Below are positions 5,317 to 56,307 of a DNA stretch of 64,000 nt, one piece after another (the first letter of the stretch is position 1; every line of letters starts with the position of its first letter). This DNA is from Candidatus Ancaeobacter aquaticus (lineage in GTDB: Bacteria > Auribacterota > Ancaeobacteria > Ancaeobacterales > Ancaeobacteraceae): NCBI GenBank assembly GCA_030765405.1, contig JAVCCP010000067.1:97051-161050 (forward strand). Reading direction: 5' to 3'. Under the pieces are notes generated by a model, which was not told the DNA's origin, made no database searches, and worked only from the letters and a program-made list of their open reading frames with translations. A program made the position numbers and the translations under genes.

Positions 5317-5590
5317 TACATATATAAAACGTTTGACAGTACTAAAAATGAATATTCTTTGCGCAGTCAATGAAGACGGATGAAATGGTAATTATGAATT
5401 TTTTATATACATATCATGACACTACTCTATTGAAACAGAGGAAAATACTACACTGTTATCATGAGTATCCTGTCTTATTTGGCAAACATTATTCATTGCA
5501 TACTGTGTCTTTTTGCGGGGCGTAGTTAATTGCAGTACTGTTAGGCATTTTTTTTAGACGTTCTTTCGTCTGAAAAGGAATGCGAAATCA

Positions 5591-6616
5591 ATGAATGATA
5601 AAATCAATCAACTTAATGATTTAAAAGATACTGCTTTTACCGAGATAAAAAATGCACAGTCGCTTGTTTCACTTGATAATGTGCGGGTACAATTCTTAGG
5701 TAAAAAAGGAAAACTCACCGAATTTTTGCGCGGTTTAGGCAATGTTGATTCTGTCGAAAGACCTCTTATCGGTAAAGCCGTTAATGATGTAAAAAAAAGT
5801 ATTTCTGATGAAATTGACAGAAGTTTCTCGGTGACAAAGAAACTTGAATCAGAGAAGAAATTTCACACGGAAAAGATTGATTACACATTACCCGGTAAAG
5901 TTCGATCTTTAGGAAAAGCGCACCCTATTGCAATGGTTTTAGATGAAGCGTTGCGTATTTTTTCTTATATGGGGTTTGCGATCAAAGAAGGTCCTGAAAT
6001 TGAGAGCGAACATTATAACTTTGAAGCGCTCAATATTCCAAAATTGCATCCCGCAAGAGATATGCAGGATACTTTTTATGTAGATGAAGATATTCTCTTA
6101 AGAACACATACCTCACCGGTACAGATACATGTTATGGAAAAATGTGATCCCCCACTGCGTATTGTCGCTCCAGGTAAAGTCTATCGGCGTGATTCTGATA
6201 TTACTCATTCTCCTATGTTTCATCAAATAGAAGGTTTCATGATAGATACTGATGTAAGTTTTGCTGATTTAAAAGGTGTCTTGACTACATTTTTGAAGGA
6301 GCTGTTTGGAGAAGATACTGCGTTACGATTTCGACCGAGTTTTTTTCCTTTTACTGAACCGAGCGCTGAAGTAGATATAACGTGCGTGATGTGTAACGGT
6401 AAGGGATGCCGTATATGTAAAGGTACGGGATGGATAGAGATACTTGGCGCAGGTATGATTCATCCAGAGGTATTTAAATCTGTTGGGTATGATTATGAAA
6501 AATATACCGGTTTTGCTTTTGGAATAGGTGTTGAGAGAATTGCAATGTTGAAATACAGGATTGGAGATATCCGGTTATTTTTTGAGAATGATATACGTTT
6601 TCTTTCACAATTTTAA
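5591..6616 (+). CDS. pheS: Phenylalanyl-tRNA synthetase alpha subunit, with a CxxC-x6-CxxC insertion
   Basis: Class II motifs and the FPFTEPS motif are present. It sits within the conserved thrS-infC-rpmI-rplT-pheST cluster. Confidence 0.9.
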   Translation: MNDKINQLNDLKDTAFTEIKNAQSLVSLDNVRVQFLGKKGKLTEFLRGLGNVDSVERPLIGKAVNDVKKSISDEIDRSFSVTKKLESEKKFHTEKIDYTLPGKVRSLGKAHPIAMVLDEALRIFSYMGFAIKEGPEIESEHYNFEALNIPKLHPARDMQDTFYVDEDILLRTHTSPVQIHVMEKCDPPLRIVAPGKVYRRDSDITHSPMFHQIEGFMIDTDVSFADLKGVLTTFLKELFGEDTALRFRPSFFPFTEPSAEVDITCVMCNGKGCRICKGTGWIEILGAGMIHPEVFKSVGYDYEKYTGFAFGIGVERIAMLKYRIGDIRLFFENDIRFLSQF

Positions 6617-6636
6617 TGTAATAAAAAAGGTGTGGA

Positions 6637-9036
6637 ATGTTAGTTTCATATAAATGGTTAAAAGAATTTGTTGATTGCAAAGAGTCGCCTTCTGAGCTAG
6701 CCGATATCTTGACGATGGGTGGTGTTGAGGTCGAATCAGTTGAAGATCTTGGTGAAGGGTTGGAAAACGTCGTTGTCGGTAAGATTATGAAAATTGACGC
6801 GCATCCTAATGCAGATAGATTATCTGTGTGTACCGTTGATGTCAGTGGAGAGACTCTTACGATAGTGTGTGGGGCTAAGAATATGATCGAGGGTGACCAT
6901 GTCCCCGTTGCTAGAATAGGGGCAACCTTATGTGGCGGTATGAAGATTGAAAAAACGGTGCTTCGTGGAGTGACATCCTGCGGCATGATGTGTTCTGCAA
7001 AAGAATTAGGACGTGGTGATGAGCATCATGGCCTTTTGATTTTAGATCGTGATACAAAAATTGGAAGTGATATAAAAACTGTTCTTGGGCTTGATGATTA
7101 TGTGCTGAGTTTGGGTGTGACGCCAAATAGGCCTGATTGTTTAAGTATTATTGGTGTTGCACGAGAGGTAGCGTTACTCACCGGAGCAAAACTTTGTGTT
7201 CCTTCAAGTAAAGACTGTTCTCTTAAAAGTGGGAAAAGTGAAGAGATAACGGTTGCAATCAAAAATAAAGAATTATGTCCCTGTTATACAGGCCAGACGG
7301 TTCGTAATGTGACGGTTAGCTCTTCGCCAAAATGGCTACAGCAAAGACTTGAACATGTCGGTTTGCGGTCAATAAACAATATTGTTGATATAACTAATTA
7401 TGTTTTGTTTGAATGCGGACATCCCATACATGCATTTGATTATGATTTGATAGAGGGTAAAGAAATTATTATAAGGAATGCTGCGCCAAAAGAATCTATT
7501 ACTACGATAGATGAGGTGAGACGCGATTTAGATGCCGAGATGTTAGTTATCGCTGATAAAATAAAACCCGTTGCTTTAGCAGGTGTGATGGGTGGTAACA
7601 ACTCCGAAATTAGTGATACAACAAAGAATATTTTTATAGAAAGCGCATATTTTATCCCCTCAACAGTAAGAAGAACGTCTAAAAAGCTGGGTTTATCCTC
7701 TGATTCTTCTTATAGATTTGAACGCGGGGTTGATCCGTATGGTCTCTATTATGCACTAAGCCGAGCCACTGAGCTTATAGAGCAGGTTGCAGGTGGGAGT
7801 CGCGAGAAAAACTATTCAGAAGATAAGGGAGAGCTTGCATCAAGAACAGAAATATCTGTTCGTGTATCTCGAGTGAATAGAATGCTTGGAACGGAACTCT
7901 CGCAAAAGGAGATAAAAAATATAATTAAAAAACTAGGATGTACCATAAAAGACGAAAAAGATAATACTTTTCACGTAGATGTCCCAACAAACAGAGTTGA
8001 TATAACACAGGAAGCAGATATGATCGAAGAAATTGCGCGTATTTACGGGTATATCAATGTGCCTATGCAGCTTCCTCGTGTTCCAATATCAGTTCCCCAG
8101 GAAACGAGCGATATAGATATAACGAAAACATTGCGTGAAAACTTAATTTCTCAAGGATTGATGGAAACAATAAGTTATAGCTTTATTAATAAGAATACAC
8201 TTAATTGGTTAGTTGAAAGAAGAAAGAGCTCGTCGTTTGCAGTTTTAATCATGAATCCAATAAGTGATGAACAAAATGTGATGAGAACAACACTTATTCC
8301 CAGTATGCTTGATACATTAGCACTTAATTATAAGAGAGGTGCGCAGGGGATGAAGTGTTATGAGTTGGGAAATATCTACACAAATGGCGATAAACAGTAT
8401 AGTGAAAAGAAGAAGGTGTTGATTGGATGTATGGGGGAAGTAGAAGATAAAAAATGGTATAACAACCAGGAGGATTTTGATTTTTTTTATATTAAGGGAA
8501 TCATTGAAACACTTATTGCATCATTTGGTCTCAATCGGTATTCTTTTATTGAAAGTAATGACAATGTTTTTCAGCCGGGGATGAGATCAGACGTGTACTG
8601 TGGAGAAGAAAAGATTGGTGTGTTTGGAAAGGTGCATCCGGAGGTGTGTGAGTACTTTGATATTAAAAAGACAGTGGTTATTGCAGAACTTGATGTTGAG
8701 GGTATCTCTCAAAATAGGGTCTCAAAAGTACGTGTAAGAGATATTCCTAAATATCCGTCTGTAACTCGTGATATTGCGTTAGTTATTGACTGTGATTGTC
8801 CGTCAGAAAAAGTGATTAATATTGTGCAAAAATTTGGTTCTGATTTAGTGAAGGATATAAAATTGTTTGATATATTTAAGGGAGGGAAAATACCGGAAAA
8901 TAAAAAGAGTGCGGCTTATAGAATATGTTATCGATCGAATGATCGTACGTTAACTGATGATGAAGTTAACGAGGTGCATTCAAAAATAGTAAAAAAGTTA
9001 CACAGTGAATTAAATTCTGAAACGAGAGAAATGTAA
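6637..9036 (+). CDS. pheT: Phenylalanyl-tRNA synthetase beta subunit
   Basis: 799 aa. N-terminal tRNA-binding domain (MLVSYKWLKEFVD), B3/4, B5 and FDX anticodon-binding domains. ATG follows AAGGTG. Confidence 0.9.
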   Translation: MLVSYKWLKEFVDCKESPSELADILTMGGVEVESVEDLGEGLENVVVGKIMKIDAHPNADRLSVCTVDVSGETLTIVCGAKNMIEGDHVPVARIGATLCGGMKIEKTVLRGVTSCGMMCSAKELGRGDEHHGLLILDRDTKIGSDIKTVLGLDDYVLSLGVTPNRPDCLSIIGVAREVALLTGAKLCVPSSKDCSLKSGKSEEITVAIKNKELCPCYTGQTVRNVTVSSSPKWLQQRLEHVGLRSINNIVDITNYVLFECGHPIHAFDYDLIEGKEIIIRNAAPKESITTIDEVRRDLDAEMLVIADKIKPVALAGVMGGNNSEISDTTKNIFIESAYFIPSTVRRTSKKLGLSSDSSYRFERGVDPYGLYYALSRATELIEQVAGGSREKNYSEDKGELASRTEISVRVSRVNRMLGTELSQKEIKNIIKKLGCTIKDEKDNTFHVDVPTNRVDITQEADMIEEIARIYGYINVPMQLPRVPISVPQETSDIDITKTLRENLISQGLMETISYSFINKNTLNWLVERRKSSSFAVLIMNPISDEQNVMRTTLIPSMLDTLALNYKRGAQGMKCYELGNIYTNGDKQYSEKKKVLIGCMGEVEDKKWYNNQEDFDFFYIKGIIETLIASFGLNRYSFIESNDNVFQPGMRSDVYCGEEKIGVFGKVHPEVCEYFDIKKTVVIAELDVEGISQNRVSKVRVRDIPKYPSVTRDIALVIDCDCPSEKVINIVQKFGSDLVKDIKLFDIFKGGKIPENKKSAAYRICYRSNDRTLTDDEVNEVHSKIVKKLHSELNSETREM

Positions 9037-47750: not shown

Positions 47751-50003
47751 ATGAACGAAGTGCATTTTAATTTAATCGCAAAAGAAATGAAACTCGATCC
47801 AAAACGTGTTCTTGCCGCAGTGTTGCTTCTTGACGGTGGTGCTACGGTACCCTTTATTGCACGATATAGAAAAGAATTAACAGATACTCTTGATGAGGTA
47901 CAAATTACTGATATACGCGATAGGATCAATCAGCTGCGTGATCTCGATAAACGACGTGATGCGATTATTAAGTCTCTTGAAGAAAGAAAACTGCTTACTG
48001 AAACACTCAAGAAGAAGGTAATGGCTGCAGAATCTCTTACCGTACTAGAAGATATATACCTGCCGTATCGACCAAAAAAACGTACCAAAGCAACAGTGGC
48101 AAAAGAAAAGGGTCTGGAACCACTGGCAAAATTGATTTTTGAACAAACAGATGTTGATCTTATCGCGGCTACAAAAAAATATGTTAATAAGAAAAAAGGC
48201 GTGGAAGGCAGTGAAGATGCACTTGCAGGTGCTCGTGATATTGTTGCCGAATGGATGAATGAAGATCAGGGTATACGTGCAAAGATGAGAGAGCTGTTTG
48301 CGGCTGAAGGATTGATTAGGTCAAAAGTCTGTAAAGGTAAAGAAAAAGACGGCATTAAGTATAAAGACTATTATGAATGGGAAGAAAAAATAGCTACCGC
48401 GCCTTCACACCGTATTCTTGCTATTCGAAGAGGTGAAAGTGAAGGGTTTTTAATGGCACGCATCACTCCGCTTGAAGAAGATGCTGTTTCATTGATGGAT
48501 CAATATTTTGTTAAAAATAGTACTGAGTCAGCTCAGCAGGTAAAACTTGCAGCACATGACGGTTACAAGAGATTATTATCTGTAGGTATGGAAACAGAAG
48601 TGCGGCTATCATCAAAGAAACGTGCTGATGAAGAGGCTATAACCGTATTTGTTGAAAATTTAAGACAGCTTCTTTTAGCATCTCCTCTTGGAGAGAAAAA
48701 TGTACTTGCTATTGATCCCGGTTTTAGAACAGGGTGTAAAGTTGTGGCTATTAATAAACAAGGGAAATTTCTTTTTACTGAAGTGATATATCCTCATGGA
48801 TCAGAATTTAGTGCCTCAGAAGCAACTGAAGCAGTAGTGAGTATGTGTAAAAAATATGAAATAGAAGCAATTGCGGTAGGTAACGGTACTGCGGGTAGAG
48901 AGACAGAAGCATTTGTTAGAGATATTAAGGCGCTAAACAAAATACCTGTGATACTAGTCAATGAAAGCGGAGCATCTATTTATTCTGCGTCTGCAGTTGC
49001 CCGTGAAGAATTTCCTGATCAGGATCTTACGGTACGTGGGGCTGTGTCTATTGGCAGGCGGCTCATGGATCCTTTATCAGAACTTGTTAAGATCGATGCA
49101 AAATCGATTGGTGTCGGTCAATACCAGCACGATGTAGACCAGAATGCGTTAAAAAATAGTCTTGATGATGTTGTTGTTAGCTGTGTAAATGCGGTAGGTG
49201 TTGAAGTAAATACATCAAGCAAACAGCTTCTGACCTATGTATCCGGTGTTGGACCAAAGTTAGCGCAATTAATTATAGAATATCGAAATGAAAATGGTCC
49301 TTTTACAACAAGAAAAGAACTGCTCAAAGTGTCGACACTTGGACCAAAAGTATTTGAACAGGCAGCAGGTTTTTTGCGTATACGTGGCGCAAAGAATAAA
49401 CTTGATTGTAGTGCGGTACACCCTGAAAGCTATCATGTAGTTGAGGCTATGGCTAAAGATCTGGGTAGTACAGTAACTGATATTATATCTGACAGCTCAC
49501 TTCAAAATAAGATAGATCTGAAGAAATATGTTACTGATACAGTGGGGTTACCGACTTTGCAGGACATTGTAAAAGAATTAGCGAAGCCGGGAAGAGATCC
49601 CCGCAAAGAATTTGAAGAGATAAAATTCCAGGATGGTGTAACAACAATGGATGATCTTAAAGTGGGGATGAAACTCACCGGAGTAATAACCAATATTACT
49701 GCATTTGGAGCATTTGTTGATATAGGCGTCCATCAGGACGGATTAGTCCATATCAGCCAAATGTCAGACGGTTTTGTGAAGAGTCCCGCTGATGTAGTAA
49801 AAGTCCAACAAAAGGTTACCGTAACCGTAATGGAAATTGATAAAGACCGAAAACGCATCGCTCTATCTATGAAGACCAAACTCGAGAAAGATTTTTCTCT
49901 CAAAAAAGACCATCCTAAAAAGGCGAGCCCATCGCAAAAGAGTGATTCATCTATGAGTGACTTTGGAAAAAAACTGATGGAAGCAGCTTTAAAGTCACAA
50001 TAA
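47751..50003 (+). CDS. tex: Transcription accessory protein Tex (HTH, YqgF, HhH and S1 domains)
   Basis: 750 aa, colinear with Tex. YqgF-like (LAIDPGFRTGCKV), HhH, and C-terminal S1 (GMKLTGVITNITAFGAFVDIG). Confidence 0.9.
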   Translation: MNEVHFNLIAKEMKLDPKRVLAAVLLLDGGATVPFIARYRKELTDTLDEVQITDIRDRINQLRDLDKRRDAIIKSLEERKLLTETLKKKVMAAESLTVLEDIYLPYRPKKRTKATVAKEKGLEPLAKLIFEQTDVDLIAATKKYVNKKKGVEGSEDALAGARDIVAEWMNEDQGIRAKMRELFAAEGLIRSKVCKGKEKDGIKYKDYYEWEEKIATAPSHRILAIRRGESEGFLMARITPLEEDAVSLMDQYFVKNSTESAQQVKLAAHDGYKRLLSVGMETEVRLSSKKRADEEAITVFVENLRQLLLASPLGEKNVLAIDPGFRTGCKVVAINKQGKFLFTEVIYPHGSEFSASEATEAVVSMCKKYEIEAIAVGNGTAGRETEAFVRDIKALNKIPVILVNESGASIYSASAVAREEFPDQDLTVRGAVSIGRRLMDPLSELVKIDAKSIGVGQYQHDVDQNALKNSLDDVVVSCVNAVGVEVNTSSKQLLTYVSGVGPKLAQLIIEYRNENGPFTTRKELLKVSTLGPKVFEQAAGFLRIRGAKNKLDCSAVHPESYHVVEAMAKDLGSTVTDIISDSSLQNKIDLKKYVTDTVGLPTLQDIVKELAKPGRDPRKEFEEIKFQDGVTTMDDLKVGMKLTGVITNITAFGAFVDIGVHQDGLVHISQMSDGFVKSPADVVKVQQKVTVTVMEIDKDRKRIALSMKTKLEKDFSLKKDHPKKASPSQKSDSSMSDFGKKLMEAALKSQ

Positions 50004-50081
50004 TTGTTATTACTCATATTTATAAGGTGCGCCTTTTTTTTGTTTGCAACACATATGAATTAAGTTATAATTTAGGATGTT

Positions 50082-50970
50082 ATGAAGAAAAAAAGACATA
50101 AAAGCACTAAGTCAAGCGAGTTTCTGAGCGAGGAAATGGAATGGCTTTATCTTACACCTGCCCAGAGAATGCATGAGACAACAAAGTTATGGCAATTATT
50201 TATTGCTATGCGAGGGAACCTTGATCCTGAACCCGATCCTCAAAGTCCTTTCTATTTTCAAAAAAAATAAAGTCAAAGGCCTTTTAATTGGCGGCCAGGC
50301 ATGCATTATTTACGGTGCAGCTGAATTTAGCCGTGATTCTGATTTTGTTGTACTTTGTAAAGAAGATAATTTACAGAGAATACGCATTGCATTAAAGGAA
50401 TTGAAAGCTAAGATTATTTATGTCCCCCCATTAGAAATTGAATATTTAGAGCGTGGTCATGCCTGCCATTTTAGGTGCGTTGCCAGAGATGTACAGGGTT
50501 TACGGGTGGACGTAATTTCTAAACTCAGAGGTTGTGAACCGTTTGATGAATTATGGAAGCGAAGGAAGAGGATAATTTTGACAAGAACCAATTCTGTAGA
50601 TGTAATTGGACTTAAAGATCTTGTCCAGTGTAAAAAAACTCAGCGGGATAAAGATTGGTTAATGCTTAAACGGCTGGTTGAAAATGACATTATTATAAAC
50701 AAAGATAAGTGTCCATCCGATGATAAAATAAGATGGTGGCTTTTTGAATCCCGAATACCCGAAACCCTTATTAAGTTGACAGAGAAGTATCCTAAAATTG
50801 TAAAAAATTGCATATCTGATAGACCGTCTTTAATCTCAGCCATAAAAAAAGATTTACAAAAACTTAACGTGCAACTTCAAGAAGAAGAACGTGTAGAACG
50901 AGAGAAAGATATAGAGTATTGGACTCCCTTGAAAAAGGAACTGGAATTATTACGCAGGAAATTAAGATAG
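50082..50970 (+). pseudogene. Minimal nucleotidyltransferase-fold protein (GG...DSD motif) split by a +1 frameshift at an A8 homopolymer (50260-50267)
   Basis: ORF1 (50082-50270) ends at TAA directly after A8. The +1 frame continues FKKNKVKGLLIGGQACIIYGAAEFSRDSDFVV..., an NTase motif. The two pieces are colinear. Confidence 0.6.
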
Positions 50971-51142
50971 TTTATAGATTATATTAATAATTGGAATGCA
51001 CGAAGTATAGTGAAAAGCATCCCAAGCCGGTTTAAGGGGTATTATTTTTATGAGAGACCTCTTTCCCTTGGACTTACAGTGGTCCTGAAAGCGGAATAGA
51101 GGGAAAAGGCAATAAAGGGAGTTGAGCCCTTATTCACTCTAA

Positions 51143-51217
51143 AACCTTATTAAGTTGACAGAGAAGTATCCTGAAATATGAGAAAAAACTGCATATCTGA
51201 TAGATCGCTCTTTATTT
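51143..51217. repeat. Roughly 85%-identical copy of a 75-bp internal segment of the nucleotidyltransferase gene (original at 50762-50834), lying in the downstream intergenic region
   Basis: Original: AAACCCTTATTAAGTTGACAGAGAAGTATCCTAAAATTGTAAAAAATTGCATATCTGATAGACCGTCTTTAATC. Copy: AACCTTATTAAGTTGACAGAGAAGTATCCTGAAATATGAGAAAAAACTGCATATCTGATAGATCGCTCTTTATTT. Confidence 0.7.
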
Positions 51218-51308
51218 ATACAAAAATCAACAGTGTTGCACTGTAATTATTACGATTTGTAAGTGCTTTATATATAGTGATATATAATTATTTACCCCCC
51301 CCCAGCCC

Positions 51309-51337
51309 TTGACAAACCTTTTATTATCAGGTATAGT
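51309..51337 (+). promoter_or_regulatory. Near-consensus sigma70 promoter (TTGACA-17-TATAGT), immediately preceded by a C9 homopolymer at 51295-51303
   Basis: -35 TTGACA at 51309-51314, 17-nt spacer, -10 TATAGT at 51332-51337. The predicted TSS is about 51344. Confidence 0.55.
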
Positions 51338-51343
51338 TCATTT

Positions 51344-51409
51344 ATGAAACGAAAAAAGAAGAGGTCTGTACATAAACGGTATCTGAATAACAGAAAGAGT
51401 GAATTATGA
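51344..51409 (+). CDS. 21-codon highly basic upstream ORF (MKRKKKRSVHKRYLNNRKSEL). Apparently leaderless. Its TGA overlaps the ATG of the giant gene (ATGA).
   Basis: ATG at 51344 is 7 nt after the -10. It is in frame through TGA at 51407-51409. The giant gene ATG is at 51406. Confidence 0.4.
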   Translation: MKRKKKRSVHKRYLNNRKSEL

Positions 51410-54400
51410 AAGCATATTCTATCTCAATGTATCGGATGACACCCTTGATGAAGGTTATTAGTCTTGTTGTAGCATTTATTTTTATTTTTACTTCTACTAC
51501 ATTTGCTATTCCTCGCACAATGTTGGATGTAACCCAGTCCAAAGGGGTGCAATCTGTTTCAAAAGAAGCGGAGCTAACCTATCACATTAATCCGGCAAAA
51601 TTTCTTGTGCCTGAAAATTTCGGTATGGTTACCGAACGGTTCATATCATCAGGAACAAAAAATGCAAAGAAACTCATTATCCAGATACAGGATTCTCATT
51701 GCAATTATGAAGCGCAAAAGAATATATCGAAAATGATTCAGATAATGGCTACGGATAAATCAACAGCCGGGGCACTGAAAATGATTTCAGTAGAAGGATC
51801 GCAAGGTGTCGCAAATTTTGATTATGAGCGTTCTTTCCCTAACAGGGAAATCAGAAGCCAAACAAGCGATTATTTTATGAAAATAGGCTGGCTTACCGGA
51901 CCGGAATTGTATGAGATAGATTCAAAAGATAAGCCGCTACTTTTTTTTGGAGCGGAAGATAAAGATCTATACGAGAAAAATCTAGATTATTTCTTGAAGA
52001 GCAAAAAGGATATAGCGCGTGAACATGCATTTATAGATAAGGTATTGAGTGTAATAGCTGTTTTGAAAAGAAAAATATTTTCTAAGGCAATGCTTAATCT
52101 CGCACAGAAACGTCAAGAATGGGATGGTGGTATTCTACAGTTTACGGATTATTGCGGCTATATAGATAATCTAGCCTTAAAACACGGATTCGGGGAAAAA
52201 GGCGCAAAATATTTTAGTGATAAGAAAAAATATCCAAATTTCACTGCTGTTATGGAAAGTATTGATATTGAAAACAAAATAAATCCTAAAAAAATACAAT
52301 CTGAAAGAGAGGCGATTGTTAGTCATCTTCAAAAAAAGATGGTCAAGGAAGAACTTTCAGAGCTTGTCAAACAATCATTACACTTGCGTATAGGTAAAAT
52401 CACTTCAGATATGTTTTATAATTATTTAAATGAGGTGGTAATAAATAAAAAAATTGATATGAAAAAATATCCTAATTTAAAAGGATATATGCAAATAGTA
52501 AAACTGAACAGCGTATTAGATGCAGGAAAACTGTTTGGCGAAGTTGACAGGATAGAAAATGCAATAAAGAACAAAATGTTCAAGAATAGGGAAGAGAAAG
52601 AACTAGACCTGATGATAAAACAGGTAAATATAATGAAGAATCTTCTTAACTTGAGAATGTCGCGACGTGATCTTTCTTTCTATGACAATAATAAGAAAGA
52701 TATGACAGCTGATAAATTGATAAGAAAAGTAGGCAAACTGGCTAAAAAAACCGGTATAAGCAGTGATCTTTCCGGCTCGATTGCATGGCTAAAGGCAAAC
52801 AAAAATATAGATGTATCGGTATGTGAAGAATTTTATAAAGCGGCTTTAGCAAGAGATAAAGTGCTTGTTGAAAATACGATTAAAGAGATGGGTAGGACGA
52901 AAGCAAATGCGGTAGCAGTAGTGAGCGGAGGTTTTCATACGCAGGGTATGAAAGAACTATTTAAGGGTAAAGGGTATTCATATGTGGTGGTTACTCCCAG
53001 AATGACTAAAGCGTATAATGATAAAATATATCTTAGCCGAATGCTGAATAAGCAGACTGAATTTGACAAAATATTTGGTGCAACAGGCACGAGGCTTTCC
53101 GCATGGACAATGAGAGATAAGTTGATATTTAAGAAATCATGGGCTACCGAATTAGCGCTTATGGCAGAAAAGTTAGGTGATTTTATCGCATTCAGGCAGT
53201 GGATTTTTATGAATAAAACAGATCTCGGCATTGATATCGTTGAAGATAAAGATGGTTTAAAGATTGTTGATCAAAGTAACGCAAAACAGGTATTGGTGAG
53301 AGAGGGTAAAGATGGTGCTCCAGAAATAACAGAAGTGAGTACGATGTCTGCCAAAATTTCTGAAGAATCAGGAGTAGACAAAGGAGCAGGACATCGAGAC
53401 ATCACGGTGGCAGAAGCCGAGAGACTTTCTGATCGCATGAAAAGCCAATTGGGTTATTTTGTTGATAAGCTTCTGGAAGAATTAGCATCAACTGAATTTG
53501 ATAATATGAAAAGAGATGCTCTGAGTATTAAAGCTCTCATTGCAGAGAATGGGAATCTTGAGGATATTAAAAAAGCGGTGAGTAAATTGCGATTATCAGA
53601 GAGCGAAGTTTATAAGCAATTGCAGGAAGAGGGCAAAGATATAGAAGAAGAGGCGTGGGTTTTTGATTGGATGGATTTCACGAAATATGTCGTTAAGAAT
53701 AATTTAGAGGCTGAAGAGGAAGAAATTGTTGTAGTAGCTGCAGCAGCTGAAGCACGTGAAGTGATAAACCAGACAGACGGTGATGATGAACTTGTCAAAG
53801 GTTCCATGCTCGCCAAAGCGCCTGAGGTTAAGGTACACGATCACTGGGAAGAGATGAATTTTATTACGGCAGGTAATAAGAAGTCTGATGTGACAGAGCG
53901 TGTAAGAGCAATCAGTGCGCTTGGCGAAATGAAAACACCTTTGACTATTAAATCGGAAGTCATAGTAAAAAAGTTACAGGATCTGGCAGTGGATAAGGGA
54001 GAGCCAAATGAGGTGCAGCAGGCTGCAATACATGCGTTGATGGCGCAAGACGAGTCAAAAGCTATCGCTTTTATGGGGGAACACTCGCTTATTCTTGTTA
54101 TGGATCAGACAGACGGTGATGATGAACTTGTCAAAGGTCCCATGCTCGCCAAAGCGCCTGTTAGAATACCTGCAGAGGCAATGGATCAGACTGACGGTGA
54201 TGATGAGAAGAAGGTGGAGCCGCGATCGCACGATCACTGGGAAGCGATGAATATTCTTACGGCCGGCGACAAGAAGTCTGATGTGACAAAGCGTGTGGAA
54301 GCGATCAGGACGCTTGGCATGATGAAAGCTCCGTCGACTTTTAAGGTGGAAGACATAGTGAAACAACTGCAGGATATGGCGATGGACAAGGGAGAGCCAG

Positions 54401-56307
54401 TCGAGATACAGCAGGCGGCGCTCGCCGCGTTTATGGAGCTGAAAGGAGAACTTCCCGCGATGATTGAGGGGACGCCGTCGATGTTTGCCAAAGTGGCTGA
54501 GAAAACAGCACGTATAAAAGATATAGAAACGATTACTAATGAGATTCATGGCATTCCGGGTATGATAGATGAGTTCGATTTGAAGGGAAGAGAAGGGATG
54601 CCGACTGGCTTCGACCTGATTAAAAGATCGCAAGACGCTGATGAGCTGATATCGGCGAGGAGTGAACAAGAATATAAAGAAAGTCGCAAAAAGATAACCG
54701 ATTGGTTGGATGAGATTAACAAGAAGATAGGGGTTGAAGCAAAAAATGTCATGCAAGAGAAAAAGGGAAAAGTGTTGGATGTTGTGTTGAAGGAATATGC
54801 CGGAAAGAGTTTTAAAAGAAATATAACTGGGGGTATCCCTCAAGGGATGACAGCGCTGGTGCAGGAGATTCAGCGGCGCGGAGAATTTCGTCTATTAACG
54901 GAACAGGATATTCAGGAAGTGTTGGAAAAGAATGTAATCGCTAATGTTCTTGCTAATCCGGCTGAGGGTAATTTCACAGTTAAGGTAATGATGAAAGAAG
55001 CCAAAGCGTCTGAAGTTACAAGACCAGGAGTTGGATCTACTGAAGGTTATGTGAACGAAGCGATATTGAATGCATATAATAGTTATGCAGAAAATCCTGA
55101 TGGCGCAGTAGAACTAATATTAAATGCATTGAGTAATATGGAGGAAGATGAGTATCTTGTGAATCTGGTAACAGCGATTGATATATTGAGTGGCGTTAAT
55201 CGCCCTAATTTCAATTCTTTAATCGATTATTTATTAGCTAAAAAAGACAGTACCGATCATAGTGGTTTAAAAGATGAGATTAAGCCGATAGTAGATGAAA
55301 TACTTGCTGCTGAGGAGGAGTTGTTGTATGATAAACTTGCGGGGAAGCTTAATGGACTGAAATTAACAGAAGGTTCAGATGCAGAAAAGGCGCGTGATAT
55401 TTTAGTAAGTGTCATAAAGACAGGTGATTTGGCTGTTATCAGGGCAACAATCTCTCGTGCTGTACTCGATATTCCCCGTGATGTGTTTCTTAATGATGTC
55501 AAGACAAACGTAGAAGATATGTTGAGTCCGGGGTTTGTTTCAAGCAGTTTAGGTGTTATGTATTATTCATTGATAGGTTTAAATGAGGCAATGCCGTCAG
55601 AGGAGTATTTTGGGGCTGAATGGAAAGTGATAAGCGAAACTGTTAAAGCCAACATTAATACCACGGCAGTTGCAGATAGCGCTCTACTAAATAAGGAAAA
55701 CATTGATAAAAAAGAGATGTTGTTCCATCATGTTGAAAAAGCTACTGATCAGGTACAGCTTAAGATGCAGTTAAAAGAACACGTTGCGGCAGCGGTACAG
55801 GCAGTATTGCAAGGGCTTGATAAACGTGTTGTTGTTGCTGTAGATTATGCTGATTGGGATCAGGGAGTGTTCGATCAGGTCAAAGAAGAGGTCTTTAAAG
55901 AAAAGAAACTTATATCTGAGGAACAGAAGAAAAAGTTTAAAGAAATTATGGAGGATCACATAGTTATAGGAAAAGAAACGGATACTACGGATACTGTTGT
56001 GAGTGAAGCAAGAGATAAATTAGATGAGCTAAAAGCTTACACGCTTGTATCAATAGATATCCCTGCAGCACTATTTGGGAAATATGAAGATATGATTACA
56101 TTGGAAAATCTCGCTATATTCCTCTTAACATCTAATGGCAAGATAAATGTCGTTGATCTTGATCTTGTTAAAGCGAAGGCTATGGGTCTTAAAGATGTGG
56201 TAGCTGCAATAGAAAGTGACAGTTTGTTGCCAATATTGGATGATGGTGCGACGATACGGACAAATGCTGTTATAAACGCGTATCAGGCACTTGGATTCCA
56301 GGCATAA
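51406..56307 (+). CDS. Giant (1633 aa) signal-anchored protein: N-terminal TM segment, Tiki/TraB/GumN/ChaN-superfamily-like domain, acidic linker, HEAT (PBS-lyase-type) repeats, long alpha-helical C-terminal region. Function unknown.
   Basis: N-terminal hydrophobic segment (LMKVISLVVAFIFIFTSTTFA). ...KKLIIQIQDSHCNYEAQ... and ...AVAVVSGGFHTQGMKELFKGKGYSYVVV... resemble the two GxxH-type motifs of the ChaN/TraB/GumN family (C-terminal consensus vAvGaaHl.Ge.Gl..lL...GY.V). Repeats HDHWEEMNFITAGNKKSDVTERVRAISALGEMK / HDHWEAMNILTAGDKKSDVTKRVEAIRTLGMMK look like HEAT repeats. AAAGAG SD lies 7 nt upstream. Family assignments are from memory. Confidence 0.8.
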   Translation: MKAYSISMYRMTPLMKVISLVVAFIFIFTSTTFAIPRTMLDVTQSKGVQSVSKEAELTYHINPAKFLVPENFGMVTERFISSGTKNAKKLIIQIQDSHCNYEAQKNISKMIQIMATDKSTAGALKMISVEGSQGVANFDYERSFPNREIRSQTSDYFMKIGWLTGPELYEIDSKDKPLLFFGAEDKDLYEKNLDYFLKSKKDIAREHAFIDKVLSVIAVLKRKIFSKAMLNLAQKRQEWDGGILQFTDYCGYIDNLALKHGFGEKGAKYFSDKKKYPNFTAVMESIDIENKINPKKIQSEREAIVSHLQKKMVKEELSELVKQSLHLRIGKITSDMFYNYLNEVVINKKIDMKKYPNLKGYMQIVKLNSVLDAGKLFGEVDRIENAIKNKMFKNREEKELDLMIKQVNIMKNLLNLRMSRRDLSFYDNNKKDMTADKLIRKVGKLAKKTGISSDLSGSIAWLKANKNIDVSVCEEFYKAALARDKVLVENTIKEMGRTKANAVAVVSGGFHTQGMKELFKGKGYSYVVVTPRMTKAYNDKIYLSRMLNKQTEFDKIFGATGTRLSAWTMRDKLIFKKSWATELALMAEKLGDFIAFRQWIFMNKTDLGIDIVEDKDGLKIVDQSNAKQVLVREGKDGAPEITEVSTMSAKISEESGVDKGAGHRDITVAEAERLSDRMKSQLGYFVDKLLEELASTEFDNMKRDALSIKALIAENGNLEDIKKAVSKLRLSESEVYKQLQEEGKDIEEEAWVFDWMDFTKYVVKNNLEAEEEEIVVVAAAAEAREVINQTDGDDELVKGSMLAKAPEVKVHDHWEEMNFITAGNKKSDVTERVRAISALGEMKTPLTIKSEVIVKKLQDLAVDKGEPNEVQQAAIHALMAQDESKAIAFMGEHSLILVMDQTDGDDELVKGPMLAKAPVRIPAEAMDQTDGDDEKKVEPRSHDHWEAMNILTAGDKKSDVTKRVEAIRTLGMMKAPSTFKVEDIVKQLQDMAMDKGEPVEIQQAALAAFMELKGELPAMIEGTPSMFAKVAEKTARIKDIETITNEIHGIPGMIDEFDLKGREGMPTGFDLIKRSQDADELISARSEQEYKESRKKITDWLDEINKKIGVEAKNVMQEKKGKVLDVVLKEYAGKSFKRNITGGIPQGMTALVQEIQRRGEFRLLTEQDIQEVLEKNVIANVLANPAEGNFTVKVMMKEAKASEVTRPGVGSTEGYVNEAILNAYNSYAENPDGAVELILNALSNMEEDEYLVNLVTAIDILSGVNRPNFNSLIDYLLAKKDSTDHSGLKDEIKPIVDEILAAEEELLYDKLAGKLNGLKLTEGSDAEKARDILVSVIKTGDLAVIRATISRAVLDIPRDVFLNDVKTNVEDMLSPGFVSSSLGVMYYSLIGLNEAMPSEEYFGAEWKVISETVKANINTTAVADSALLNKENIDKKEMLFHHVEKATDQVQLKMQLKEHVAAAVQAVLQGLDKRVVVAVDYADWDQGVFDQVKEEVFKEKKLISEEQKKKFKEIMEDHIVIGKETDTTDTVVSEARDKLDELKAYTLVSIDIPAALFGKYEDMITLENLAIFLLTSNGKINVVDLDLVKAKAMGLKDVVAAIESDSLLPILDDGATIRTNAVINAYQALGFQA

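Follow-up and report, generated by a model that had tools for sequence, protein, structure and literature searches.

The locus between tex and a gene for a 1633-aa protein, in the 64,000-nt stretch of Candidatus Ancaeobacter aquaticus DNA analysed here (the window), raises the question of whether a nucleotidyltransferase gene has been broken at a homopolymer or whether two genes lie there in overlapping frames. The first open reading frame, ORF1 (50082..50270, + strand, 62 aa), ends in FYFQKK-TAA, and its TAA (50268-50270) follows directly 3′ of an A8 run (50260..50267, + strand), just as the preliminary description of the region had stated; the placement between tex upstream and the giant gene downstream was likewise correct. 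In the +1 frame relative to ORF1, the sequence reads ...SIFKKNKVKGLLIGGQACIIYGAAEFSRDSDFVV and stays open up to 50970, and with a TTG start this frame constitutes ORF2 (50221..50970, + strand, 249 aa), a predicted MenT1-like minimal nucleotidyltransferase. The A8 run supplies both the ORF2 codons AAA-AAA-AAT (Lys-Lys-Asn) and the last codons of ORF1 (Gln-Lys-Lys-stop).

The A8 run lies within the conserved frame of ORF2

The preliminary description took the gene to be broken at the A8 run, that is, an ancestral nucleotidyltransferase gene of about 296 aa cut in two when an A7 run gained one nucleotide, or else misread at this position. Removal of a single A does join ORF1 and ORF2 into a 295/296-aa fusion, and homopolymers are prone to error. 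However, the stretch 50000-51420, including the A8 run and the downstream copy described below, is 100% identical across three independent JGI assemblies, and therefore neither the run nor the copy is an assembly accident; the JGI gene callers annotate ORF1 and ORF2 both. Among 59 loci, the A8 run is found in the window alone, the others having one A7, six A6 and for the rest at most five adenines, and it lies at the position of the conserved Phe-Lys-Lys codons of ORF2. The homologues are 247-253 aa long and have an N-terminus of the form MTPNPILKVLSTFKK..VK.LLIGGQ, while the N-terminus of ORF2 (NPILKVLSIFKK), encoded upstream of and across the A8 run, aligns with theirs without a gap. This homologous start is in the ORF2 frame before and after the run, so the A8 represents plain Lys-Lys-Asn codons, and since coding is conserved in that frame upstream and downstream alike, nothing is interrupted there; an A7 would instead put the conserved ORF2 N-terminus out of frame with the remaining ORF2.

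The orthologous loci give the same answer. An ORF1 homologue is present, with ORF2 overlapping it in the +1 frame, in 78/78 evaluable homologous loci from many phyla, and in none of them (0/78) do the two share a single frame; the few longer calls in the family are over-extensions of the ORF2 frame and not true fusions. Each of the two ORFs, the 62-aa one and that downstream of it, is thus conserved in its own right as a separate gene, and the comparative data refute the frameshifted pseudogene, leaving it and the homopolymer error with next to no probability. The 295/296-aa product can be made on paper, as had been noted, but the single ancestral gene that it was taken to restore did not stand. 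Judged by these comparisons, the region is an intact two-gene operon in which ORF1 and ORF2 are separate overlapping genes, not a decayed gene. Therein also lies a warning for annotation, namely that a homopolymer, a stop and an open +1 frame resemble a pseudogene, whereas here they belong to a normal and deeply conserved two-gene overlap.

ORF2 has its own start within a dual-coding overlap

A start codon occurs at the position of the window TTG (50221) in 59/59 aligned loci (47 TTG, 10 ATG and 2 GTG), and GGAGG lies 4-16 nt 5′ of the ORF2 start in 50/59. The window has a weaker Shine-Dalgarno-like GAGGG (50212..50216, + strand) inside ORF1, encoding Arg-Gly here and Gly-Gly elsewhere. At the first residue of this ORF1 Gly-Gly, 54 loci have Gly, and 50 of them encode it with GGA, whereas the codon of the second Gly is unbiased. 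We propose that ORF2 would be translated from its own start, with a Shine-Dalgarno sequence encoded by the conserved Gly-Gly codons of ORF1, and the gene layout favours translational coupling of the two. Upstream, a candidate sigma-70-like promoter of the two-gene module (50043..50071, + strand; TTTGCA/TTGCAA, a 16-17 nt spacer and TATAAT) lies 11 nt 5′ of the ORF1 ATG; its 10/12 consensus matches in the consensus scan are a pattern match only, and the 8 promoter-like sites in the region are close to the 6.0 ± 2.3 expected from shuffles.

The two genes overlap by 50 nt (50221..50270, + strand), of which the first 42 nt (50221-50262) are dual-coding with both frames constrained. Split by ORF2 codon position (1/2/3), the entropy amounts to 0.31/0.65/0.69 within the overlap and 0.74/0.42/1.56 in ORF2 alone; in neither frame do third positions vary freely within the overlap, and the synonymous T's that would stop ORF1 are used in 0/57 and 0/58 cases. 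This 42-nt stretch provides a clean natural example of dual coding. The +1 relation kept in all loci and the extreme nucleotide-level conservation of the overlap would also fit a programmed +1 ribosomal frameshift, which the preliminary description had raised, or transcriptional slippage at the A run, either one yielding an ORF1-ORF2 fusion besides or instead of separate proteins, and A8 could allow some polymerase slippage in this organism. Such recoding is very improbable, however, as the slippery site and stop context are not conserved, the ORF1 stop varying among loci from 50 to 176 nt 3′ of the ORF2 start and the A8 being unique to the window; moreover, ORF2 has the conserved start codon and Shine-Dalgarno sequence of its own, and constraint on 14 codons in both frames is expected of two translated products, not of a single shift point.

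ORF2 is a distant homologue of MenT1

The AF2 model of ORF2 has a pLDDT of 91.2, and in a Foldseek search its best matches are MenT1/MenAT1 (E 4e-5), with a Pol-beta nucleotidyltransferase fold closest to the solved MenT structures. When the broad family profile A6 was compared with the PDB, MenT1 (8an4_A) was the sole significant match (E 2.8e-4, 23.4 bits), weak but specific, aligning ORF2 residues 5-160 with MenT1 6-163; the profile of the narrow alignment A2 gave spurious MAPK and CFTR matches only. The key ORF2 residues are G24-G25, S37-R38-D39-S40-D41, D97 and K138-K139-T-Q-R142-D143-K-D145. G24-G25 make up the Gly-Gly turn and belong, with [S/T]37-x-D39-x-D41, to motif I; D97 is the third carboxylate (motif II), and the K...R...D residues of the C-terminal half are candidates for motifs III and IV. 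Among them G25 is invariant and G24 nearly so, [S/T]37-x-D39-x-D41 and D97 stay fixed, or very nearly, in members down to 30% identity, and K138, T140, R142 and D145 are invariant. In the alignment, S37-R38-D39-x-D41 corresponds to T39-R40-D41-x-D43 of MenT1, D97 to its VVVDLL segment and K138...R142-D143 to its K137...R141-D142, while no ORF2 residue aligns clearly with D152 of MenT1 (motif IV). In MenT1, activity depends on D41 and K137, R40 touches the bound nucleotide, and auto-phosphorylation takes place on T39 (PMC10435456, PMC11375011); by alignment, Ser37 of ORF2 corresponds to this T39.

On its modelled fold and profile match, ORF2 is a predicted minimal Pol-beta-type nucleotidyltransferase and a distant homologue of MenT1 within the AbiEii superfamily, which bears out the earlier assignment of the +1 frame to a minimal nucleotidyltransferase and places it with the AbiEii/MenT kind. 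The AbiEii/DUF1814 match expected of the fused translation did not appear: nothing meaningful came up when the fused protein, ORF1, ORF2 and diverged members of the family were scanned with Pfam, NCBIfam and PADLOC, and the PF08843 (AbiEii/DUF1814) model matched neither the window protein, even at E ≤ 10, nor any of 8 diverged members at E ≤ 0.01. A candidate Zn site (H80/C82/H83/C86/C105) was dropped; its residues are invariant in the close subfamily alone and not in the wider family.

Compared with MenT1 of the MenA1-MenT1 pair (Rv0078B-Rv0078A of Mycobacterium tuberculosis; PDB 8AN4/8AN5/8RR5), ORF2 is longer (249 versus 196 aa) and 17% identical, matches no PF08843 model, and carries an extra helical C-terminal region with a final long helix at residues 212-248. 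It is shorter than MenT3 and MenT4 (about 290 aa) and is missed by the AbiEii Pfam model, and the partners differ as well, since the DUF1814 toxins of AbiEi-AbiEii, MenA3-MenT3 and MenA4-MenT4 go with COG5340 antitoxins of about 200 aa (wHTH/COG5340), whereas ORF1 has about 60 aa. The orphan minimal nucleotidyltransferases TM1012, the H. pylori JHP933-type protein (4OK0), LnuA and ANT(2″) are enzymes that stand alone or confer resistance, with no conserved small partner gene overlapping theirs, and none of the four was matched by the sequence profile of the ORF2 family.

ORF1 is a new small helical protein

The N-terminus of ORF1 is rich in Lys, two helices span residues 17-23 and 26-42, and the conserved tail, LDPEPDPQSPFYF, is acidic, proline-rich and the most conserved part of the protein. 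Its codon-position entropy (1.04/0.64/1.52) is typical of coding sequence, and in public data it is called as a separate 62-aa protein (P0121, 13 contigs); PGAP left the small gene uncalled at several loci. The AF2 model has a pLDDT of 72.8, and ORF1 gave no match in Pfam, in the PDB or, by Foldseek on this model, to any fold. Its profile (A3) reached no E better than 0.11 against the PDB, with 8AN5 (MenA1) unmatched, and no HepT/HEPN Pfam match was found. With its helices and its conserved DPEPDPQSPFYF tail, ORF1 is a small protein of a new kind.

The nearest comparison is MenA1, a 68-aa antitoxin encoded upstream of MenT1 and representative of a type that is small (<70 aa), helical, situated directly upstream of the nucleotidyltransferase and without a DNA-binding domain (PMC10435456). 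ORF1 is likewise small, helical, upstream in all loci and without a Pfam domain, but it is unrelated to MenA1 in sequence and bears the tail described above. The two systems differ further in that the ORF1 and ORF2 genes overlap by at least 50 nt with dual coding, and in that MenA1-MenT1 comes from mycobacteria whereas carriers of the ORF1-ORF2 module belong to Omnitrophota, Elusimicrobiota, Planctomycetota, Desulfobacterota and other phyla.

ORF1-ORF2 is probably a MenAT1-like toxin-antitoxin module

The best reading of the pair, drawn by analogy, is that it is probably an uncharacterised MenAT1-like toxin-antitoxin module. ORF1 is proposed as the antitoxin because it is small, helical, conserved in its tail and located upstream, as MenA1 is to MenT1, and we consider it moderately likely that the intact operon, with its MenT1-like ORF2, works in this way. 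To the gene structure, conservation, dual coding, fold and homology described above, the analogy would add toxicity, a tRNA target and neutralisation by ORF1: free ORF2 would block translation through nucleotide addition to tRNA 3′ ends, and ORF1, as the cognate antitoxin, would bind ORF2 and silence its nucleotidyltransferase. The earlier suggestion that minimal nucleotidyltransferases of this kind are often toxin-antitoxin components is supported, and the partner that was to be sought elsewhere in the genome is probably the upstream ORF1 itself.

In keeping with such a role, the module is spread over many phyla, and its neighbourhoods are variable, with IS transposases, an MNT/HepT pair and AAA_14/DUF4143 genes among them; toxin-antitoxin modules typically take the form of autonomous two-gene units of this sort, in variable islands beside IS elements and other such pairs. 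MntA-HepT (MNT-HEPN) is itself comparable, in that a small nucleotidyltransferase belongs to a two-gene toxin-antitoxin-like operon whose genes often overlap. There, however, the antitoxin role falls to the nucleotidyltransferase, with the HEPN RNase encoded after it, whereas here the small gene precedes the nucleotidyltransferase, and no HEPN (HepT) gene lies beside the module in the window, where the neighbours are tex and the 1633-aa gene. At one homologous locus, L088, a MntA-HepT pair adjoins the module.

The pair might also lie outside toxin-antitoxin biology, with ORF2 a nucleotidyltransferase that is not toxic and modifies a small molecule or a peptide, and ORF1 its regulatory subunit or substrate (for example through RiPP-like Ser/Tyr nucleotidylation in the QSPFYF tail). 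The non-toxin minimal nucleotidyltransferases LnuA, ANT(2″) and TM1012 score nearly as high as MenT1, the strongest conservation of ORF1 falls in its tail, and two loci lie inside PqqD/radical-SAM/glycosyltransferase clusters. We regard this alternative as rather unlikely, since the sole sequence-level match in the PDB is MenT1, including the [S/T]-R-D phospho-acceptor motif, since PqqD/radical-SAM neighbours are absent at most loci, the window included, and since autonomy in variable islands fits a toxin-antitoxin unit.

A more speculative idea, to which we give a distinctly low chance, is that ORF1 is a substrate or co-factor and not just an inhibitor. Its unstructured invariant DPEPDPQSPFYF tail would then enter the active site, either to be nucleotidylated on Ser/Tyr, in a new RiPP-like peptide-modification pair, or to trigger auto-phosphorylation of Ser37 through a mechanism of separate evolutionary origin from MenA1; if so, the 14-codon dual-coding overlap would tie the sequence of the tail to the N-terminal helix of ORF2. 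The two loci within PqqD/radical-SAM clusters hint at the peptide-modification variant.

The family extends over many phyla

The family comprises about 2,200 clusters at 50% identity, spread over Omnitrophota, Elusimicrobiota, Planctomycetota, Desulfobacterota, CPR and other phyla, for the most part uncultured. It is a large family of MenT1-like nucleotidyltransferases that are always paired with a new small protein and have no Pfam, NCBIfam or PADLOC model, and the small gene is overlooked by most annotation pipelines. If ORF1-ORF2 is indeed a toxin-antitoxin module, the MenAT1 type, with a small antitoxin and control by toxin auto-phosphorylation, would reach far beyond actinobacteria, and ORF1 would offer a second, unrelated antitoxin solution for comparison with MenA1.

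A lineage-specific remnant follows the module

The diverged copy of an internal segment that the preliminary description placed about 380 bp downstream, in non-coding DNA, was found as described. Its source (50757..50835, + strand) covers ORF2 codons of about 180-205, PETLIKLTEKYPKIVKNCISDRPS, and the partial copy (51136..51217, + strand), about 88% identical with small indels, is a non-coding gene-fragment remnant. Two blocks can be distinguished, 50757-50807 versus 51136-51186 with 84% identity and 50802-50826 versus 51183-51207 with 92%, at a spacing of 379-381 bp. By BLAST, copy and source are 91.7% identical over 60 nt (E 6.5e-15), and the Smith-Waterman score of 136 versus 56 ± 7.7 for shuffles is not due to chance. 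Translation of the 80-bp copy is broken by stops. A simple tandem duplication of the whole 379-bp unit was rejected, the sequence 3′ of the copy having no similarity to 50971-51135, and beyond this fragment the 64-kb window holds no further copies of ORF1 or ORF2.

Instead of being a scar, the copy could be imagined to serve as a regulatory RNA, a recombination site or some other functional element, since it is identical in three assemblies of the same population and has the module on one side and the next gene's promoter on the other. Yet the identity of three contigs reflects a single population and not conservation, Rfam has no match in 49900-51500, the copy is interrupted by stops and indels, and none of the 80 homologous loci has a counterpart; a gene-flanking copy is limited to this organism's own contigs and to L046, where it is an unrelated rearranged repeat. 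A function for the copy is accordingly highly unlikely. The 80-bp copy is a lineage-specific remnant of the 3′ third of the gene; it could date from a duplication of part of the gene or from the displacement of a resident allele by an incoming one. Of the decay or rearrangement suggested earlier, the rearrangement survives as this downstream scar, and the decay of a functional gene does not. A possible second piece of the remnant (51240..51254, + strand; ACTGTAATTATTACG) matches 50940-50954 at 14/15 positions, a weak similarity (E 0.022 in a short local search) that could be due to chance.

Gene structure at the A8 run

ORF1 (50082-50270, +), a 62-aa small protein gene, ends in ...FYFQKK with its TAA directly 3′ of A8, a run of eight A (50260-50267), and the +1-displaced frame, open from 50173 to 50970, reads ...SIFKKNKVKGLLIGGQACIIYGAAEFSRDSDFVV, as in the preliminary description. 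That description took the two frames for one gene broken at A8, or divided by a +1 programmed frameshift or a homopolymer sequencing error. Loss of one A does join the frames into a hypothetical fusion of 295 aa, but homologues match the ORF2 part only: with the fusion as query 2,353 homologues were found, the best 120 of which are nearly all 226-260 aa and match only its last 74-85%. The window counterpart of their aligned N-termini (MTPNPILKVLSTFKK..VK.LLIGGQ) is the ORF2 frame, LILNPILKVLSIFKKNKVKGLLIGG, kept both before and after A8. In ORF2, A8 therefore specifies the conserved Lys-Lys and the Asn after it and marks no break in the gene; A7 would place the conserved N-terminus out of frame with the remaining ORF2. 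Three longer entries (P0006, P0023 and P0091) were rejected as ORF1 fusions, being over-extended in the ORF2 frame.

Because three contigs from different JGI samples match the window at 100% over 50000-51420, neither A8 nor the downstream copy of an ORF2 segment is an assembly accident. A pseudogene or sequencing error, which would make of the open +1 frame the rest of a damaged gene, has next to no probability, as both frames of the overlap show selection of the kind expected for two translated products.

Scanning one genome for each species gave 80 loci in which to look for the same arrangement, spanning Omnitrophota, Elusimicrobiota, Planctomycetota, Desulfobacterota, Nitrospinota, Verrucomicrobiota, CPR and other groups. 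Profile searches of translated frames found an ORF1 homologue (median 63.5 aa) in 78/80, as a separate gene overlapping ORF2, and ORF2 lies +1 relative to ORF1 in all 78; the remaining two loci meet a contig end or have a truncated gene. The overlap mostly measures 50 or 56 nt, with a maximum of 176 nt. Programmed frameshifting or slippage, which would join the constantly +1-displaced frames in one product, is very unlikely: a conserved slippery site is absent, the ORF1 stop position differs between loci, A8 occurs in the window only (elsewhere A7 once, A6 six times and no other run above 5), and the overlap pattern misfits a single frameshift point. The decay or frameshift reading is thereby refuted, and the locus holds, with high confidence, two intact overlapping genes.

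ORF1 is longer by 15-40 codons, with overlaps of up to 176 nt, in L016, L025, L026, L028, L030, L032, L037, L039-L045, L049, L051 and L058 of the homologous loci, and these lineages have gained an Arg-rich tail, ...KKPAHRRTGLHHLRRRR..., whose likeness from locus to locus is probably a consequence of ORF2 conservation (LLIGGQACIIYGAAEF) in the other frame. In several NCBI-sourced records (L084-L087) the small upstream ORF is missing from the gene tables, leaving an "intergenic" gap of ~180 nt, and JGI tables do list it; therefore, the partner gene is systematically under-annotated.

Initiation of ORF2 and dual coding

ORF2 initiates independently of ORF1. In the gap-free start-region alignment of 59 loci, window included, the codon at the window TTG (50221) is TTG in 47, ATG in 10 and GTG in 2, and a non-start codon in 0/59. 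GGAGG lies 4-16 nt 5′ of this start in 50/59 loci, with a 4-base core in 5 further, and is supplied by two conserved ORF1 Gly codons in a row. Of the 54 loci that have Gly at the first of these positions, 50 use GGA, whereas the second codon, the internal control, is unbiased (GGG 17, GGA 16, GGC 16, GGT 10), which points to selection on a putative Shine-Dalgarno sequence. The window carries a slightly weaker version, GAGGG (50212-50216, +), followed by the TTG.

Entropies at codon positions 1/2/3 are 1.04/0.64/1.52 in the ORF1-only region (ORF1 phase) and 0.74/0.42/1.56 in the ORF2-only region (ORF2 phase), a normal coding periodicity; in the 14-codon overlap (ORF2 phase) they are 0.31/0.65/0.69, with wobble-position variation suppressed in both frames, and past the ORF1 ...SPFYF the ORF2 periodicity is back to normal. 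A synonymous ORF2 T that would stop ORF1 occurs in 0/57 and 0/58 at two such sites. Therefore, selection acts on the ORF1 tail LDPEPDPQSPFYF as well as on the ORF2 N-terminal helix TPNPILKVLSTF; the pattern fits two translated products, and the dual-coding overlap is unusually well conserved.

A MenT1-like nucleotidyltransferase and its partner

ORF2 (50221-50970, +; 249 aa) has no match among Pfam, NCBIfam and PADLOC models. AlphaFold2, given 100 homologues, modelled it with confidence (pLDDT 91.2, pTM 0.84), with the helix/strand order expected for a Pol-beta-type nucleotidyltransferase core in the N-terminal half and a helical C-terminal half. The top Foldseek ranks in the PDB are MenT1, the toxin of the M. 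tuberculosis MenA1-MenT1 pair, and the MenA1-MenT1 complex (E 4e-5 to 1e-4; TM 0.61-0.64, normalised to target length), followed by TM1012, an H. pylori nucleotidyltransferase, LnuA and MenT3. A profile of the broader family, extending to 30% identity, matches MenT1 as its only significant hit in the whole PDB (E 2.8e-4), aligning S37-R38-D39-S40-D41 with MenT1 T39-R40-D41-V-D43, D97 with the VVVDLL strand, and K138...R142-D143 with K137...R141-D142. These residues are invariant or nearly so family-wide, position 37 being always Ser/Thr. In MenT1, activity needs D41 and K137, R40 touches the nucleotide, and the antitoxin induces auto-phosphorylation at T39 (PMC10435456, PMC11375011). Thus, from fold rank and profile alignment, ORF2 belongs distantly to the MenT/AbiEii superfamily, outside its current Pfam model: a MenT1-like nucleotidyltransferase that keeps the aligned active-site residues of motifs I-III. 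For motif IV (MenT1 D152) no clear counterpart aligns. The family comprises 2,236 clusters (50% identity, E ≤ 1e-3).

A Cys/His cluster (H80, C82, H83, C86 and C105; GHACHFRC...RGC) in ORF2 residues 80-105 (50458-50535) is invariant or nearly so in close homologues, not in the wider family, and may be a subfamily-specific metal site.

ORF1 yielded no Pfam, PDB-sequence or fold match. Its model (pLDDT 72.8) places helices at residues 17-23 and 26-42 between a Lys-rich, disordered N-terminus and a tail without structure; conserved are E17, W21, P26, R29, E32, L36, W37, G45 and, in the tail, P51-D-x-Q-S-P-F57. MenA1, the MenT1 antitoxin, is a 68-aa helical protein encoded upstream, with a disordered C-terminus and no DNA-binding domain (PMC10435456). 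ORF1 resembles it in size, position and helical nature but has no sequence relation to it, and the locus is a MenAT1-like small-protein/nucleotidyltransferase pair with a novel partner protein, of a large unannotated family.

Genomic context and proposed function

In the window the pair, with its own promoter-like site at 50043-50071, has tex (47751-50003) upstream and a 1633-aa gene (51406-56307) downstream. Neighbours vary by locus: giant genes and lgt in some; an MNT/HepT pair, ISL3 transposase fragments and PqqD with radical SAM elsewhere; AAA_14/DUF4143 with a Y1 transposase; or PqqD, radical-SAM and glycosyltransferase genes in a cluster near an AbiEii gene. The unit is autonomous, always paired and placed amid variable surroundings, as toxin-antitoxin modules typically are.

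A toxin-antitoxin function of the pair is somewhat favoured. ORF2 would be a nucleotidyltransferase toxin extending tRNA 3′ ends, and ORF1, as its antitoxin, would restrain it through binding and possibly also by promoting Ser37 auto-phosphorylation; the overlap would couple synthesis of both. The main rival, in which ORF2 is a non-toxic nucleotidyltransferase and ORF1 its regulator or substrate, is rather unlikely though seriously to be weighed: LnuA, ANT(2'') and TM1012 reach nearly equal fold scores, the ORF1 tail is highly conserved, and two contexts are PqqD/radical-SAM. The earlier surmises of a nucleotidyltransferase and of a toxin-antitoxin role are both supported, the second as the favoured reading.

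At L084 (JAUYCX010000037.1, Omnitrophota; 5549-7015) PqqD-family (PF05402) genes flank the nucleotidyltransferase gene on either side; the radical-SAM/B12/glycosyltransferase-PqqD cluster to which it belongs also holds tiny ORFs of 46 and 43 aa, and 5 kb upstream lie a PF08843 AbiEii gene and then another PqqD gene. At L088 PqqD and radical SAM lie 3 kb upstream, and an association of the nucleotidyltransferase with PqqD may be recurrent. At L092 (JBDRMQ010000092.1; 2225-5778) a 60-aa LpxB fragment and full-length lpxB enclose the pair, and AAA_14/DUF4143 genes lie to either side of it, which suggests an insertion or rearrangement hotspot.

The downstream copy

The diverged copy of an internal segment reported earlier is real: 51136-51217 repeats ORF2 codons about 180-205 at about 88% identity, with small indels and stops. 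Segments 50757-50807 and 51136-51186 match at 84%, and 50802-50826 and 51183-51207 at 92%, spaced 379-381 bp; BLAST aligns 60 nt at 91.7% (E 6.5e-15), and gapped local alignment scores 136 vs 56 ± 7.7 for shuffles. An RNA-family search of the copy returned no match, and the other loci lack a counterpart. The sequence 3′ of the copy is unlike 50971-51135, so a simple tandem duplication taking in the whole 379-bp unit is not supported. A weak 15-nt match to the gene's last codons (51240-51254) may be a second remnant piece, then implying an internal deletion. One plausible route, we infer, is that an incoming allele replaced the resident one through one homologous and one illegitimate junction, leaving the old 3′ end. 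Whatever its origin, the copy, earlier read as part of a decay or rearrangement, is a scar next to an intact gene and no sign that the gene decays.

A second, independent rearrangement at such a locus is found in L046 (JAGVOB010000154.1; 3001-3810), a truncated ORF2 copy with a profile match from position 60, where 142 bp at the beginning of the matched gene region, with up to 150 nt of its upstream flank counted in, recur ~150 bp downstream at 90.8% identity.

In the downstream 1633-aa ORF an internal block (...QTDGDDELVKG[S/P]MLAKAP... then ...HDHWE.MN..TAG.KKSDVT.RV...) occurs twice, and within the first ~35 residues of the ORF a hydrophobic stretch, judged by eye, may serve as signal or anchor. 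This gene is preceded by the region's best promoter-like site (TTGACA-17-TATAGT, 11/12 matches; −35 hexamer 51309-51314), and a C9 homopolymer (51295-51303), 5 nt upstream of the hexamer, could influence promoter activity or vary in length.
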